39,825 nucleotides of DNA from Escherichia phage vB_EcoP_S523, in the sequence record MH031343. One strand, written 5' to 3'. The notes under the pieces are model-generated. The model saw only the letters and a program-made list of their open reading frames with translations, did no database searches and had not been told where the DNA came from. Each line of letters begins with the position of its first letter. Position 1 is the stretch's first letter. Below, piece after piece: positions 1-38,503 of this stretch. The position numbers were made by a program, and so were the translations under genes.

Positions 1-19
1 ATGACCTTTAGTTTAACTC

Positions 20-42
20 TTTCGCAATAGTGAGTCGTATTA
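20..42 (-). promoter_or_regulatory. phage RNAP promoter (phi1.3-like), TAATACGACTCACTATTGCGAAA
   Basis: Promoter core downstream of gene 1.2, upstream (across the window wrap) of ligase gene 1.3. Confidence 0.7.
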
Positions 43-312
43 CTTCCAGTGCTTCAGGTCTGCGTGTACCTTGCGGAGCCACTCAGTCTGTGCATTGCAG
101 CGAACGTCTGCGTCGTCTTGTTCGAAACGCTCAGAGGTTAACACTACGCCATTCCGCAAGACCACTCGAAGAGTCTCACCGGATACCCAGCGCATCCTAG
201 CATAGTTATTATAGCGGAAAGTCTCAGTGACCACACGGACATCATGGTCTTCTTTGAGTCGTTCGATAGCGTCTTTGTATGCTATTAAGTTACCACTGTA
301 TAAGCGACCCAT
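40..312 (-). CDS. gene 1.2-like protein (T7 gp1.2 is a host dGTPase inhibitor), 90 aa
   Basis: ORF starts MGRLYSGNL and ends HWK, like recalled T7 gp1.2; sits between gene 1.1 and the promoter preceding ligase; ATG at 310-312 with GGAGG upstream. Confidence 0.6.
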   Translation of the reverse strand: MGRLYSGNLIAYKDAIERLKEDHDVRVVTETFRYNNYARMRWVSGETLRVVLRNGVVLTSERFEQDDADVRCNAQTEWLRKVHADLKHWK

Positions 313-461
313 TAGAGTGCCTCCTTCCAGTTGCGTTTCTCAGAGTTGCCACGCTGTGTCTTGTGGCGTTTCTTCATGCGGTCTTTACGTTCCTGCCATT
401 CAGTACCGTGTTCATTGATTACGTTGTTGCGCTTAGTGGTTGGTTCAAAGTTGGTACGCAT
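312..461 (-). CDS. gene 1.1-like small basic protein, 49 aa
   Basis: Hand-translated minus-strand ORF MRTNFEPTTKRNNVINEHGTEWQERKDRMKKRHKTQRGNSEKRNWKEAL; AAGGA RBS; stop overlaps gene 1.2 start as TAATG; position matches T7 gene 1.1. Confidence 0.45.
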   Translation of the reverse strand: MRTNFEPTTKRNNVINEHGTEWQERKDRMKKRHKTQRGNSEKRNWKEAL

Positions 462-543
462 AATGTTGTTTCCTTCTGTGTAGTTAATGACAGTTAATCA
501 TGAAGGCCACCAAATGTGATGACCTTGAGTTTAACTTTCAGTG

Positions 544-566
544 TTTCCCATTAGTGAGTCGTATTG
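544..566 (-). promoter_or_regulatory. phage RNAP promoter (phi1.1B-like), CAATACGACTCACTAATGGGAAA
   Basis: Promoter core overlapping the stop codon of the 185-aa ORF, upstream of gene 1.1. Confidence 0.75.
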
Positions 567-1108
567 TCTGCAACCTTACGTGCAATCTCAATGCGACCCG
601 CTACATCTTTCTTATAATAGGTGAACTCTTTGCGCTCACCGTCAGTGCACGTCTGTGTCAGCAGGTAGCGGTCGGCTTGTTCAACCCAATGTAGACATGT
701 GACTTGCTTACCACATGAGCCGAGACCCAGCTTGAACTCAGTGCGCTTCCATCCAGCATCCGGGATGTGAGCAGTAAACTTGATAGACGTGATGTCACTG
801 TGTGTATACTCACGGATAATCTTCTTGGCTTCTTTAAGTTCCTTGCGGTACTCCACTGCCTCAGCGCGTAGACGCTCAATGAGTTCTCGTTGGTTCGACA
901 TGTCATATTGTTGTTCGAACTCTAAGGTACGGATTCGACCAGCTAGTTCCTGCTTATCTCGCCATCCATCTTCAAGTCTCTCTTTGAGTGCATGAGAGTT
1001 CTTCTCTTCTTTGATTAGCTTAGTGAGAAATACCTTTGAACGATTATAGTATGTTGCTGCAAGAATGGTTGATACGAGAGCGCCTACTGAAGTGATTAAA
1101 GTAAACAT
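551..1108 (-). CDS. hypothetical membrane-anchored protein, 185 aa (N-terminal TM helix, charged coiled-coil, Cys-containing C-terminal domain)
   Basis: ORF with ATG at 1106-1108 preceded by AAGAGGAAA RBS; hydrophobic N-terminus MFTLITSVGALVSTILAATYY; flanked by two phage promoters; no counterpart on the canonical T7 map between genes 1 and 1.1. Confidence 0.6.
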   Translation of the reverse strand: MFTLITSVGALVSTILAATYYNRSKVFLTKLIKEEKNSHALKERLEDGWRDKQELAGRIRTLEFEQQYDMSNQRELIERLRAEAVEYRKELKEAKKIIREYTHSDITSIKFTAHIPDAGWKRTEFKLGLGSCGKQVTCLHWVEQADRYLLTQTCTDGERKEFTYYKKDVAGRIEIARKVADNTTH

Positions 1109-1168
1109 GATTGTGTTTCCTCTTAAAGTTAGAACTTAAAGTTATCTTAAAGTTTAGGAAGCCCGAAG

Positions 1169-1191
1169 GCTCCCAATAGTGAGTCGTATTA
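1169..1191 (-). promoter_or_regulatory. phage RNAP promoter (phi1.1A-like), TAATACGACTCACTATTGGGAGC
   Basis: Promoter core immediately after the RNAP gene stop; transcript would begin GGGAGCCUUCGGGCUUCC (UUCG tetraloop hairpin). Confidence 0.8.
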
Positions 1192-1198
1192 GATTCCG

Positions 1199-3850
1199 TT
1201 AGGCAAACGCAAAGTCTGACTTAAGGATTTCTTGCAGGTCCAGAGAGCCTTTAGCTGGCATCTCAGGCATCTTATCAAGCTGTGTCTCGTGCAACTGGTC
1301 AGCAAATTGCTCATAGAAGTCTGCAAGTACATCGTTCTCTTCGTAAGTGTTGACCATCGTTTCACGCACTGCTTTAAACAGGTTGCCAGCAGCAGCCGGG
1401 ATAGTGCCAAAGGAGTCATGAATCAGTGCGAAGGATTCCACACCGTAGACCTCATTGGAGCGCACTACAGTCATTCTCAGGTGGCTTCCATCCATTGAGT
1501 GGACAAAGTTAGGTGCGATGCCTGACTCCTGTTTACGAGCGTCAATCCCGCTATCTTTGTTGGTGTTCACGGTAGGCTGTAGACGAATCTGGCCTAAGAA
1601 CATCAGGTTCAAGCGGGTCTGTACTGGCTTCTTATATTCCTGCCAGACCGGGAAGCCATCAGGAGTAACCCAATGTACCGCACAGCGCTTACGGAGGACT
1701 TCTTTAGTCTTTTTGTCCTTGACTTCAGCAGCCAGAAGTTTAGCAGCAGACTTCAACCAGTTCATCGCTTCAACCGCTGCGACAACTGTGACCGTTACCG
1801 ATTCCCAAATCAGTTTAGCCATGTAGCCAGCCGCTTGGTTCGGTTGAGTGAACATCAAGCCCTTGCCATCGTCGATAGCTGGCTGAATGGTGTCCTCAAG
1901 AACTTGGTCACGGAATCCGTACTCTTTGGAACCATAAGCCAACGTCATGACCGAACGCTTAGTGACCTTGCGAGTCACACCATAGGCCAGCCACTGACCA
2001 GCTAACTCTTTCGTTCCCAGCTTGAGCTTCTCAGTGATTTCACCAGTGTCCTTGTTTGTCACGGTTTCCACTTCGTTATCAGTGCCGTTGACTACCGCTT
2101 CGCGGAGCATCTCGTTCACACGTTCCGCAACGATTCGGTAGATGTCCTGTACTTCCTTGCTCGGCAGCAGGTTAACCGCACGACCACCAACCTCATCACG
2201 GAGCATCGCGGAGAAGTGCTGAATACCGGAGCAGCTACCATCGAACGCCAGCGGAAGAGAGCAGTTGTAGTTCATCCCGTGGTGTTGCACACCTGCATAC
2301 TCAAAGCAGAATGCGAGGAAGCAGAACGGAGAGTCTTGCTCGGCCCACCAAGTGTTAGCAATCGGGTCAGCCGCAACGCTCATGATGTTCTCATGGTTGT
2401 CATCAATGAACTTGATGCGTTCTGCAAAGTCCACCTTGTCCACGCCAGCAGTGTTAGCACCGTGAATCTTCAGCCAGTAATACCCATCGACACCGATTGG
2501 TTTACCTTTAGCGAGCGTTAACAGACCCTTGGTCATGTCGTTGCCCTGCGGGTTGAACATCGGGACCGCGTACACACGACCGCGCCAGTCCATATTCATC
2601 GGGAACCAGATAGCTTTAAACTGTGCGAACTTATTGGCCTGACCTAACATGAACTCCATGCTCATGCGGCGTGACACTCGTGCCTTCTCTTTGCGGTAGA
2701 TTGCGGAGGCCGCTTTCTTCCATGCTTTGAGTGATGCCTCGTTGGTGTCGATGTCATCAGGTTTGACCGGGAGTTCTCCACGTTCCAGAGCGGGTACATC
2801 TTCAACCGGGCAATGCTTCCAGTTCACAATCTCGTTGACCACTGCCAGAACCTTCTTGTTAATCTTCCAAGGAGTATTCTGTGCGATGTTCACCGCCTTG
2901 TAGACTTCAGGCATATACACATCGTTGTAACGCTCAAGTCCCTTCTTGCTACCAGTGCGAACCAGAGAGAGAGGCTTGCGACCCGCAGCCCAATAGCCAC
3001 CACCGACCGGAGAAGTCCAAGGCTTCGGAGGGACCACGCAAGGCTGATACATCGGAGCGATTGCAGCCAGAGCGCCAGCACGTTTGGATAGCAGGTCTAC
3101 ATATTGTTCTGTTAACTGGATGTACTCGCCATCCTTCTCGATGTTCCCAGCGAACGGGCGGTGTAACTCAACGAGACCAGTAGACCCGATGAGCAGTTCC
3201 AACATGCGCACACCAACGTGAATTGATTCTTCAGGTGTCCATGTAGTCCACTTGGTTTGCAGTTGACCAGCATCAAGCATCTTGCCCTCTACGGCTTGCA
3301 TGAATGCTTTCTTGTAGACGATACCAACGCGCTTGTTCAGTGCCTCCTGTACGTGATTCTTAAAGTGCTTCGCTTCTTCGTCACGGATGCGACCAAAACG
3401 CAGTTCATCCTCAATACTGCGACCAATCTTAGTGGCGACCGATTGCAGGTTGGTGAACTCTTCTTTCGTCAAGCAAGCGAGTGTGACCTTAAGTGTGATG
3501 AATGCAGCAGCTTCAGGTGCAACCTTCTGTACCAGATTGTAGGCTACTGGACGCTTACCACGCTTCGCTTCCACTTCAGTGAACCAAGTGTTCCACGCCT
3601 CGATGAACTTTGGTGCGAGGGATGACAGGAGCGGTTTAGCTACTGCGTTATCACCGAACTCACCCGCTTTGATTTGACGTTCCATTGCCTTTAAGAAACG
3701 TTTCTCACCCTCGGTGTGCGCCTCGTGTTCCAACTCAAGCTGCGTAGCTGCAAGCTGTGCGCCGTAATGGTCAGCCAGAATGTTGTACGGCTGGATTGCA
3801 TTAGCGATGTCAGAGAAGTCATTCTTTGGTGCGTTGATTACGTTAGTCAT
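1199..3850 (-). CDS. single-subunit DNA-directed RNA polymerase (T7 gp1 family), 883 aa
   Basis: Same length as T7 RNAP; conserved motifs (DGSCSGIQHFSAMLRDEVGG, palm/fingers, C-terminal FAFA); position after kinase gene 0.7. Confidence 0.97.
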   Translation of the reverse strand: MTNVINAPKNDFSDIANAIQPYNILADHYGAQLAATQLELEHEAHTEGEKRFLKAMERQIKAGEFGDNAVAKPLLSSLAPKFIEAWNTWFTEVEAKRGKRPVAYNLVQKVAPEAAAFITLKVTLACLTKEEFTNLQSVATKIGRSIEDELRFGRIRDEEAKHFKNHVQEALNKRVGIVYKKAFMQAVEGKMLDAGQLQTKWTTWTPEESIHVGVRMLELLIGSTGLVELHRPFAGNIEKDGEYIQLTEQYVDLLSKRAGALAAIAPMYQPCVVPPKPWTSPVGGGYWAAGRKPLSLVRTGSKKGLERYNDVYMPEVYKAVNIAQNTPWKINKKVLAVVNEIVNWKHCPVEDVPALERGELPVKPDDIDTNEASLKAWKKAASAIYRKEKARVSRRMSMEFMLGQANKFAQFKAIWFPMNMDWRGRVYAVPMFNPQGNDMTKGLLTLAKGKPIGVDGYYWLKIHGANTAGVDKVDFAERIKFIDDNHENIMSVAADPIANTWWAEQDSPFCFLAFCFEYAGVQHHGMNYNCSLPLAFDGSCSGIQHFSAMLRDEVGGRAVNLLPSKEVQDIYRIVAERVNEMLREAVVNGTDNEVETVTNKDTGEITEKLKLGTKELAGQWLAYGVTRKVTKRSVMTLAYGSKEYGFRDQVLEDTIQPAIDDGKGLMFTQPNQAAGYMAKLIWESVTVTVVAAVEAMNWLKSAAKLLAAEVKDKKTKEVLRKRCAVHWVTPDGFPVWQEYKKPVQTRLNLMFLGQIRLQPTVNTNKDSGIDARKQESGIAPNFVHSMDGSHLRMTVVRSNEVYGVESFALIHDSFGTIPAAAGNLFKAVRETMVNTYEENDVLADFYEQFADQLHETQLDKMPEMPAKGSLDLQEILKSDFAFA

Positions 3851-3923: not shown

Positions 3924-5027
3924 TCAGCCTTGCAGTTGTGCGTCAAGTAACTTGTCAATGTTCAGAGGTAGACCCGCTTGGATTGCTAGGCGGTCCCCTA
4001 GTTGCCACTTGAGGCCGTTCACTTGTTCAACCTTGCGGAACGTTGCGTTACCATTATGCAACCATGCGTAATGCCATGCAGACCCCATGAACATCTCGGC
4101 ACGGCGTTCATTTCGGTCAATAGCTCTACGCTCAAGACGCCCTTTGACAAACTGTTGCATTCCTTCCGCTGCATGTTTAGCACGTAACTTACGGTTACGC
4201 TTACGGCGTTTCATTGCTGCCTTGCGGTTAACCTGAAAGGTTCCGTTAGGGTCACACTTAGCCTTACGATTGCGGCACCGTTCAATGATGCGCTCGTTAG
4301 CTATCGCCTCGACCTCGGCAATCAGTGCTTCAGGGTCCAGAGGGAAACCGTCCTCACGTTCACGGTCATGAGAGAAACTAACCGGGTCAGTGATGTAAGC
4401 CACATCGTTCTCATCGAACATGATGTTCCCACTGTGCATGTCGAAAGATGCAATACCGTGGAAGAACTCACGAATCATCTTGCATGTCTCAATGAACTCC
4501 TTGCTAACATACTGTGCGTACCAATCGGCATCGCCTCCAGAGCACTCAATGAACTCCTGCGCAGCACTTGCATACTTTGCGTGCACATCGTTAGCGTAGC
4601 GGTCACAGCTTTGTAAGCGGTCCAGTACGACCGTATAGCAACCTGCATGTCGTGCTACGTGATAGACGTTAGGGATACCCGCTCGGCCTTGGTGCATCCT
4701 ACAGAACGCAGTGTACGCAGCGCCTGAATCCTCTTTCTTAAAGCCAACCTTGATGACTCGGCCCGGTAACAGTTCATGTGAGTAGGCCGCACTAAAGTGA
4801 CCATTACCCAACATGCGGAAACCTGCATCACGCATTAGTGCACCCAAGGTGTGCCAATAGTCCTGATACTCAAGACCCTGCGACCCATCTGTGTCGTTGC
4901 CATCGCTTGTCTCACCGTTCACGATGTCAGCAGCCAGTGCAACCAGAAGAGGCTGGCGCTTGTCCAGTTCACTAATCGGGAGTGACTTGATGATTGCCAG
5001 ACGTGCCTGAATGTCGGTGTAGTTCAT
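3924..5027 (-). CDS. gp0.7-like serine/threonine protein kinase / host transcription shut-off protein, 367 aa
   Basis: Kinase core resembling T7 gp0.7 (GNGHFSAAYSHELLPGRVIKVGFKKEDSGAAYTAFCRM, FDMHSGNIMF); located between gene 0.3 and gene 1. Confidence 0.85.
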   Translation of the reverse strand: MNYTDIQARLAIIKSLPISELDKRQPLLVALAADIVNGETSDGNDTDGSQGLEYQDYWHTLGALMRDAGFRMLGNGHFSAAYSHELLPGRVIKVGFKKEDSGAAYTAFCRMHQGRAGIPNVYHVARHAGCYTVVLDRLQSCDRYANDVHAKYASAAQEFIECSGGDADWYAQYVSKEFIETCKMIREFFHGIASFDMHSGNIMFDENDVAYITDPVSFSHDREREDGFPLDPEALIAEVEAIANERIIERCRNRKAKCDPNGTFQVNRKAAMKRRKRNRKLRAKHAAEGMQQFVKGRLERRAIDRNERRAEMFMGSAWHYAWLHNGNATFRKVEQVNGLKWQLGDRLAIQAGLPLNIDKLLDAQLQG

Positions 5028-5789: not shown

Positions 5790-5973
5790 GATGATTTCCT
5801 TAGTTGCAGTGATTATCATAAAGGCTTCTCTTTCGAGTCACCTTGAGTTAATCGCTGTTGTCGTCGTCATCTCAAGAGTGCTTATTGTCCAAATTGTTAA
5901 AGAGCTTTAAGTGCAGGTTTGTTAGCACCGAGTCACTTTCAGTGTGTGACCTCACAAGAACGCTATGTCGTAC

Positions 5974-6233: not shown

Positions 6234-6319
6234 CCCCTTAGTTAGACTTTAAGTTATCTTTAAGTGGTCTTTAAGTTAGCACTATAAGGAAGGGATTAGT
6301 AATAAGACTATAAACAACC

Positions 6320-6342
6320 ATTCTCAATAGTGAGTCGTATAA
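6320..6342 (-). promoter_or_regulatory. phage RNAP promoter (phiOL-like, left end), TTATACGACTCACTATTGAGAAT
   Basis: Match to T7 promoter core ACGACTCACTAT on minus strand, upstream of the host-type early promoters. Confidence 0.55.
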
Positions 6343-7172: not shown

Positions 7173-7329
7173 AGAGCGTCCTCCTTGTTATACTTGATGG
7201 TTGCACTGTTAGTAGGGATGTAATTACTATTACCATCATCCCTCACTGTAAGGGTCTCTAAGAGTTAGTCACTAAGTATGCACTTTGCATATGCAGTCTT
7301 TAAGTGTCTTTAAGTTGTCTTAGGGTGCC

Positions 7330-28284: not shown

Positions 28285-28335
28285 AATTAATGTTCTCCTT
28301 AAAGTTAAACTTAAAGTAGGTATCATATAGGCACC

Positions 28336-38470: not shown

Positions 38471-38503
38471 AAACACGAAAAGGCCAGACCCGAAAGTCTG
38501 ACC
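38470..38503 (-). terminator. intrinsic terminator (TE-like early terminator): 8-bp stem, 6-nt loop, U-rich tail
   Basis: Minus-strand RNA GGUCAGAC-UUUCGG-GUCUGGCC-UUUUCGUGUUUCU; located after the ligase gene region, where T7 TE lies. Confidence 0.6.

Follow-up and report, generated by a model that had tools for sequence, protein, structure and literature searches.

Gene 1.05 and its flanking promoters

The 39,825-nucleotide (nt) sequence of Escherichia phage vB_EcoP_S523 (MH031343), which was analyzed in full and is referred to here as the window, is a complete-looking, circularly permuted T7-family genome with its genes on the minus strand. An open reading frame (ORF) of 185 amino acids (aa), gene 1.05, separates the RNA polymerase gene (gene 1) from gene 1.1; an initial annotation of this DNA had described it as a membrane-anchored protein flanked by two phage promoters. 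The ORF and both promoters are present on the minus strand:

551..1108, minus strand: gene 1.05 coding sequence, 185 aa plus stop (558 nt), ATG start (ORF call)
1169..1191, minus strand: promoter phi1.05 (TAATACGACTCACTATTGGGAGC), differing at one base from the genome consensus TAATACGACTCACTATTGGGAGA, with a putative transcript start near 1174; annotated as 'phi1.05' in phages BA14 and K11
544..566, minus strand: promoter phi1.1 (CAATACGACTCACTAATGGGAAA), three mismatches to TAATACGACTCACTATTGGGAGA, sharing sequence with the stop and the four preceding codons of gene 1.05

A scan of the window with the consensus TAATACGACTCACTATTGGGAGA, allowing up to 3 mismatches, returned 9 sites where 0 were expected. 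The sequence at 551-566 (minus strand) serves two purposes, as the final codons AAT ACG ACT CAC TAA (N-T-T-H-*) also form the phi1.1 core (AATACGACTCACTAA), and for this reason the NTTH ending recurs in most close homologues. The overlap of the gene 1.05 stop with phi1.1 is annotated likewise in BA14.

The ORF is almost certainly the ordinary, already annotated gene 1.05 of a BA14-like (Berlinvirus-type) T7-family phage. In DNA, the region shares 95% identity with phages BA14 and CarlSpitteler, and the encoded protein differs by few substitutions from BA14 gp1.05 (ACF15732; 98.9% amino-acid identity), with the same 185-aa length, promoters and stop/phi1.1 overlap found in BA14, 285P, Kvp1, CarlSpitteler and other Berlinvirus-type phages. 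Residues 106-176 match the Pfam family PF25755 (Phage_T3_1_05, "Enterobacteria phage T3 gene 1.05 protein") with an E value of 2.2e-29 and 101.6 bits, where the gathering cut-off is 27 bits; the match spans profile positions 2-72 of 73, and the family signature (F-x-L-G-x-G-x-C-G ... Q ... K-x-F-x-Y ... G-R-[IV]-E) is present. The protein also matches PHROGs 8103 and 6440, both families without an assigned function.

Gene 1.05 is already annotated in BA14, 285P, Kvp1 and K11. The BA14 GenBank record lists phi1.05, then gene 1.05 (558 nt, noted as "fusion protein with gene 1.05") with phi1.1 over its 3' end, and after these genes 1.1, 1.2 and 1.3 and the terminator TE. The arrangement of gene 1, phi1.05, a hairpin with an AT-rich leader, gene 1.05, phi1.1 with the RNase III site R1.1, and gene 1.1 is the standard one of T3, K11 and BA14, and it is also that of phiSG-JL2. 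The novelty first attributed to the ORF is therefore lost on homology search: ever since the BA14 and K11 records appeared, public annotation has included the gene with its "fusion" architecture and the two promoters, and with a Pfam family in existence the locus has little discovery value.

Gene 1.05 is a genuine gene under purifying selection. In codon alignments of the window sequence with twelve homologues, the ratio of nonsynonymous to synonymous substitution rates (dN/dS) is 0-0.19 for the C-terminal domain, with synonymous divergence (dS) of 0.3-0.7 or saturated in the more diverged pairs, and 0.11-0.57 for the N-terminal half among close relatives. A low ratio in the C-terminal domain together with free synonymous change places the conservation at the level of the protein. 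Origin-type constraint on the DNA, considered as a cause of the conservation of the C-terminal half, was rejected, since synonymous sites diverge freely. Moreover, the reading frame is unbroken, as a single tblastn piece, in 21 of the 21 records at at least 90% identity, so the disruption in closely related genomes that the initial annotation had named as a test of its claim was not seen. The possibility that the interval is non-coding origin or spacer DNA that is open by chance draws on its position near a putative origin and on nothing more; it is refuted by the selection analysis, with its low ratios despite substantial synonymous change, and is opposed by the Pfam match, the 191 cluster representatives described below, the confident fold and the intact frame in all close relatives. 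We give it virtually no credence.

To judge from tblastn, the PF25755 domain is present in 504 phage records, 340 of which are Klebsiella phages; when 1.84 billion representative proteins were searched exhaustively with a profile, 191 family representatives emerged. A six-frame search of the T7 genome with the family profile found no gp1.05 copy (best E 0.84), and the window and K11 gave one strong match each. In the distant members P0073 and P0117 the domain gene also comes after the polymerase gene. The most distant members have no adjacent RNA polymerase gene (L021, 568-816; L020, 322-660); among these most distant members one is located beside an endonuclease I gene and another in a contig with a T5-type deoxynucleotidase. 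From these neighborhoods it follows that the domain also occurs outside the T7-like layout.

Protein architecture and topology

The initial annotation had read the protein as an N-terminal transmembrane (TM) helix, a coiled coil and a C-terminal domain, and the same three parts are predicted by hydrophobicity, by AlphaFold2 and by a 3.5-residue periodicity:

1046..1108, minus strand: residues 1-21, predicted uncharged N-terminal membrane anchor, N-out/C-in (hydrophobicity and charge)
803..1045, minus strand: residues 22-102, charged helical stalk, predicted coiled coil, a variable lineage-specific cassette (AlphaFold2 and periodicity)
578..799, minus strand: residues 104-177, gp1.05 domain (PF25755), predicted six-stranded small beta-barrel (Pfam and AlphaFold2)

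Residues 1-19 have a 19-residue Kyte-Doolittle mean of 1.79. No charged residue occurs before R23, after which R23, K25, K30 and K33 contribute to a net charge of +3 in the following 15 residues. The AlphaFold2 model of the full protein, built from a 30-sequence alignment, has a continuous helix at residues 2-102 and a six-stranded beta domain at residues 106-177, with a mean predicted local distance difference test score (pLDDT) of 87.7 and block means of 83-96 in the stalk; the predicted template modeling score of 0.49 leaves the orientation of the domain with respect to the stalk uncertain. Charged residues make up 47% of the stalk, and its a/d positions are hydrophobic at a frequency of 0.55 vs a background of 0.30. 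Its strongest hydrophobic period, 3.5 residues, indicates a coiled coil, as far as periodicity predicts one, and not a single charged helix. The same period is found in K11, where it is clearer than in the window, and in L010 and PYPS50, while BP12A, PP74 and L009 peak at 3.3-3.8.

The N-terminal half is only 17-26% identical to that of the window in BP12A, BSP161, PP74 and K11. Despite identities of about 20%, BP12A, PP74, L009, L010 and K11 all retain a hydrophobic N-terminus with net positive charge after it. The region aligns over just 77% of its length in BP12A and BSP161, at 90-92% identity, with the N-terminal cassette unalignable, and the leader, barrel and flanking genes remain about 90% identical in DNA. 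When BP12A, BSP161 and PP74 are compared, the anchor and stalk (803-1108) act as an exchangeable cassette whose architecture is retained.

Similarly, the 'gp1.05 fusion protein' of K11/KP32 (Przondovirus) has the three-part architecture and the genomic position seen in the window, between phi1.05 and phi1.1, with a barrel 53% identical and an N-terminal half 17% identical to those of the window. The T3 gene 1.05 protein shares the beta-barrel, the motifs FKLGxGxCG and GRIE, and the place between genes 1 and 1.1, and T3 has the promoter, hairpin and repeat leader in common with the window; however, the T3 protein is 90 aa long and has neither a membrane anchor nor a coiled coil, and the identity between the two domains is about 44%. 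Of 176 family members, 70 are in essence the bare domain, while 82 have a TM-like N-terminus, which opens a long N-terminal extension in 69 of them and a shorter one in 11, and in 2 comes directly before the domain; the other 24 of the 176 include forms with a coiled coil and no anchor and a few with C-terminal extensions. This modular series, in which the barrel stands alone, behind a coiled coil, or behind both an anchor and a coiled coil, offers a clean experimental handle.

The 70 bare-domain members carry no signal sequence, and the domain therefore works in the cytoplasm; taken with the distribution of charges, a cytoplasmic domain leads to a predicted N-out/C-in topology for the anchored forms. 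It is likely, on the model and the composition of the chain, that gp1.05 of the window comprises an N-terminal anchor, a stalk formed by a coiled coil some 80 residues long, and a cytoplasm-facing beta-barrel of about 75 residues. A periplasmic role, or the host-envelope role that had been suggested for the protein, is unlikely on the same two grounds, namely the bare-domain members without a signal sequence and the charges around the anchor.

Two other readings of the N-terminus were considered and rejected. A cleavable signal peptide or lipoprotein does not fit a protein with no positive N-region, no consistent cleavage motif and no Cys in residues 1-30. The inner-membrane subunit of an Rz-like two-component spanin would be expected to be N-in/C-out with a periplasmic coiled coil, opposite to the predicted topology, and this candidate was rejected also because the gene lies in the early region beside gene 1 and soluble domain-only homologues exist.

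The predicted C-terminal beta-barrel

AlphaFold2 predicts the strands of the barrel at residues 106-115, 119-126, 135-143, 147-154, 159-165 and 169-177, and a domain-only model (pLDDT 81.9) agrees with the full model. In a set of 64 divergent domain-only homologues, six residues do not vary: G128, C132, Q152, F162, G171 and R172 (nt 593-727, minus strand). The window protein has cysteines at C132, C138 and C154, and of these C132, within a G-x-C-G (G-P/S-C-G) loop, is alone in being invariant family-wide, C154 being common and C138 variable. The initial annotation had drawn attention to a C-terminal domain with a cysteine motif; the domain is indeed conserved, but the motif is not, and a metal-binding cysteine cluster was rejected given C132 as the sole conserved Cys. 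The invariant residues, including the single loop Cys, could mark a ligand-binding or catalytic site, and they match no known motif.

The barrel is near neutral, with 13 K+R vs 11 D+E. A Foldseek search of the full model against the PDB gave as its best match the ribosomal protein bL19 at E 0.05, below significance, and the weak fold resemblances to the nucleic-acid-binding small barrels Hfq, WYL and bL19 all fall below significance. Among PDB sequences, a search with the single protein gave antibody noise alone at E values of at least 0.08 and a 64-member profile gave one match at E 0.64; both results were rejected. Matches in a viral structure library are to uncharacterized proteins alone, from phages of Pectobacterium, Klebsiella, Pseudomonas, Ralstonia, Aeromonas, Delftia, Erwinia and others. 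Ten family members that carry additional sequence were scanned against Pfam and revealed no informative second domain; a YabA match in that scan was set aside as lying within the coiled coil and below threshold. The residual value of the locus lies in this well-defined, functionally uncharacterized 75-residue domain, which has an invariant Cys/Gln/Arg signature and is carried by about 500 T7-family phages, including Klebsiella phages studied for therapy.

The leader and the putative origin

Downstream of each of the two promoters lie further elements:

1157..1174, minus strand: 5' transcript stem-loop GGGAGCC-UUCG-GGCUUCC, 7 bp (predicted leader fold)
1122-1130, 1135-1143 and 1146-1154, minus strand: three tandem exact AACTTTAAG units in the AT-rich leader (sequence scan)
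488..540, minus strand: R1.1-like stem-loop, a candidate RNase III site in the gene 1.1 leader (fold -18.1 kcal/mol, z = -1.9)

The UUCG-tetraloop hairpin followed by three repeats, which the initial annotation had noted, is thus borne out as a 7-bp stem and three exact AACTTTAAG units; one further exact copy of the unit occurs in the window outside the leader. The leader has a minimum free energy of -17.7 kcal/mol (z = -2.5). By inspection, the pairing of the stem survives changes on both sides in BA14, PP74, L009, T3 and K11; the GGGAGCC/GGCUUCC form of the window is common to 285P and PYPS50, whereas BA14 has a GGGAGACCC/GGGUUUCCC version. The T7 phi10 and phi3.8 transcripts start with similar stems. 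The last unit merges into TAAGAGG (1119-1125), the Shine-Dalgarno sequence, which stands 10 nt ahead of the ATG, and the GC content of 0.32 over 1081-1140 is the lowest in the first 2 kb. The layout of promoter, hairpin, three units and AGAGG Shine-Dalgarno is kept in BA14, 285P, Kvp1, P483, PYPS50, BP12A, BSP161, PP74, L009 and K11, is looser in T3, and is absent from more distant phages.

The sequence UAACUUUAA matches 9/10 bases of the T7 gene 10 epsilon translational enhancer UUAACUUUAA (PMC9590205). Single units stand directly before the Shine-Dalgarno sequence in T7 and K11, as ACTTTAAGGAG, and the ATG-proximal unit is therefore plausibly ordinary ribosome-binding context. The putative stabilizing 5' hairpin and the epsilon-like ribosome-binding context suggest high expression.

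The primary origins of T7 are phi1.1A and phi1.1B, with phiOR and phi6.5 among the secondary ones (PMC8373140). The T7 interval (NC_001604 5830-6010) contains phi1.1A with the stem AAACTCAAGGTCAT...GTGGCCTT, then phi1.1B with the hairpin AACCTTAAGGTT and the AT-rich TAACTTTAAGACCCTTAAG, and then gene 1.1. Both promoter modules have recognizable homologues in the window: phi1.05 with its hairpin and an AT-rich leader bearing ACTTTAAG units (1106-1191, minus strand) resembles the phi1.1B module, whose AT-rich leader in T7 also carries ACTTTAAG-type units, and phi1.1 with the R1.1-like stem (462-566, minus strand) resembles the phi1.1A module, AAACTCAAGGTCAT...GTGGCCTT being common to the 488..540 element and the stretch downstream of T7 phi1.1A. 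An RNase III site R1.1 is annotated at the equivalent place, after phi1.1, in phiSG-JL2; Rfam returned no family for window positions 1-1400. Compared with T7, the order of the modules is swapped in the window, with the 558-nt gene 1.05 between them, which argues that this is not a simple insertion between paired promoters and that T7 is not a simple gene 1.05 deletion. The initial annotation was correct that T7 has no such gene, but its picture of an ORF dropped between phi1.1A and phi1.1B does not hold.

The putative origin element consists of the phi1.05 promoter and the AT-rich leader upstream of the ORF, and so would not be interrupted by it. The leader has a phage promoter followed by an AT-rich stretch, as in T7-type primary origins, and the putative replication origin annotated in phiSG-JL2 comprises the phi1.05 promoter and leader alone, ending 12 nt into gene 1.05. 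Direct reading of the window leader from the transcript start to the ATG found no GTC primase core on either strand (no GTC or GAC); a GGGTC site inside the AT-rich cluster of T7 has been reported as unused for priming (PMC12839067).

Tandem units at origin-associated promoters

Units of the form ACTT(T/A)AAG occur genome-wide in 19 sense-strand vs 3 antisense copies, where about 1.3 are expected from composition, and form 6 adjacent pairs in the window; no adjacent pair arose in 300 shuffles. Each of the four tandem clusters is situated downstream of a phage promoter core, at a distance of 22-51 nt:

1122-1153, minus strand: phi1.05, 3 units
6247-6276, minus strand: phiOL-like promoter, 3 units
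7298-7315, minus strand: phiOR-like promoter after gene 19, 2 units
28298-28317, minus strand: phi6.5, 2 units

The four promoters that bear tandem units correspond to T7 origin-associated promoters. The phiOL-like promoter TTTATACGACTCACTATTGAGAA, at about 6319-6341 (minus strand), was missed by the 3-mismatch consensus scan, and its three ACTTAAAG units sit directly upstream of a host-type TTGACT -35 element. In K11 (L025) all three units of the 1.05 leader are of the ACTTAAAG variant, which is also found after phiOL, phi6.5, phi13 and phiOR (sites at 5828-5859, 503, 17833, 25892 and 40552). The CTTAAAG core is the reverse complement of CTTTAAG, and the K11 variant is genome-wide and concerted. 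T7 keeps such units after phiOL, phi1.1B and phi6.5 though it has no gene 1.05, and the units therefore do not depend on gp1.05.

These observations bear on two proposals that tie the barrel to the units. One is an RNA-binding regulator, in which an Sm/Hfq-like barrel would bind ACUUUAAG units in its own and other leaders and so govern either translation or how stable the transcripts are. Autoregulation by way of these repeats was down-weighted because the T7 repeats persist without the gene and the K11 variant unit is genome-wide, and we regard such a regulator as very improbable. The other would make the 1.05 barrel a membrane-tethered factor acting on the tandem-unit, origin-type leaders (phiOL, phi1.05, phi6.5 and phiOR), coupling origin firing or the fate of the leader RNA to the inner membrane, which we consider decidedly improbable. 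In a weaker version, independent of gp1.05, the tandem units may be a previously unrecognized replicator signature of T3/K11/BA14-type phages, and the tandem ACTT(T/A)AAG pattern at four origin-associated promoters could help to find origins in T3-type phages.

Proposed role of gp1.05

Gene 1.05 lies upstream of a TE-like terminator and thus within the early, host-polymerase transcription unit, where its neighbors include the host-directed genes 0.7 and 1.2. The early-to-middle expression that the initial annotation had envisaged is therefore plausible. T7 has no copy of the gene and T3 has the soluble barrel alone, which argues for a dispensable accessory factor of the host-takeover or anti-defense kind, like 0.7 and 1.2, and not for a core replication protein. 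That first interpretation misjudged the novelty, the cysteine motif and the relation to T7, but was otherwise partly right: gp1.05 is a real accessory protein of the early and middle periods and is probably anchored in the membrane.

In the explanation that we favor, gp1.05 would be produced first early in infection, by read-through of the host polymerase, and once more from phi1.05 in the middle period. The beta-barrel would be the working part, with a conserved protein or nucleic acid of the cytoplasm as its binding partner. The anchor and stalk present in this lineage would keep the barrel, probably dimeric, on the cytoplasmic side of the inner membrane, and the partner of the barrel would thereby be sequestered or relocated there. 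We judge the explanation as a whole to be evenly balanced between right and wrong, and the specific mechanism, a membrane-tethered accessory adaptor, is put forward more tentatively, with a chance somewhat short of even.

Several points weigh against this explanation. The topology, dimerization and membrane insertion of the protein are predictions, and the anchor hydrophobicity of 1.79 barely exceeds the usual threshold of 1.6. The window protein matches 0 PADLOC families at E values up to 1, and has no match in NCBIfam. The conserved place of the gene beside the RNA polymerase gene and the putative origin fits a role in replication or transcription too. The initial annotation had asked whether the ORF was an ordinary, previously characterized gene 1.05 homologue; a homologue it is, but we found no functional study of gp1.05, gene 1.05 or PF25755, the literature matches being genome-annotation tables only.

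A role in replication would have a precedent in p16.7 of phage phi29, which is made early and joins an N-terminal membrane anchor and a coiled coil to a helical DNA-binding domain at the C-terminus. If gp1.05 were a replication organizer of this kind, its C-terminal domain would bind nucleic acid and tether replicating DNA or the origin transcript to the membrane, a function with which the location of the gene beside the origin would accord. The predicted order of anchor, coiled coil and C-terminal domain is the same, by analogy, in both proteins; the gene is directly downstream of the putative origin and beside the RNA polymerase gene in distant phages too; and the barrel has the weak likeness to Hfq, WYL and bL19 noted above. 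However, T7 replicates from a homologous origin without any gp1.05, the T3 form has no anchor or stalk, and more distant members are located elsewhere in their genomes. The likeness to p16.7 is one of functional analogy alone, with no relationship in sequence or fold: the C-terminal domain of the window protein is an all-beta, near-neutral barrel and that of p16.7 is helical, PDB sequence and profile searches gave no significant match, and every fold match is below significance. We consider an organizer of this type unlikely.

Superinfection exclusion, the foremost suggestion of the initial annotation, or a block to genome entry, would have the anchored protein stop the DNA of a second phage from entering at the cytoplasmic face of the inner membrane. 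The predicted inner-membrane anchor, early expression and dispensability are consistent with such a role, and the variable N-terminal cassette could reflect an arms race. Yet dN/dS in the variable half is below 1 (0.11-0.57), with no sign of positive selection, and at most about 3 residues would be periplasmic. The conserved part is the cytoplasmic barrel, which is soluble in 70/176 members including T3, and the protein shows no likeness to any catalogued exclusion or defense protein in PHROGs or PADLOC. An exclusion function is in our view improbable, and the accessory adaptor described above remains the favored reading.

Genome setting and neighboring genes

The genes and the terminator that surround gene 1.05 are as follows:

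1199..3850, minus strand: RNA polymerase gene (gene 1)
3924..5027, minus strand: gene 0.7 kinase
312..461, minus strand: gene 1.1
40..312, minus strand: gene 1.2
38482..38503, minus strand: TE-like intrinsic terminator, past gene 1.3 (terminator scan; TE is annotated directly after gene 1.3 in BA14 and T7)

The best whole-genome matches, vB_YenP_WW1 and P151, cover just 82-85% of the window at about 90% identity; the genome is therefore a mosaic, with no close sequenced twin in the collection searched. On either side of the junction (1 / 39825), gene 1.2 and a phi1.3-like promoter (20-42) stand at the start of the window and gene 1.3 with the TE-like terminator (38482-38503) at its far end.

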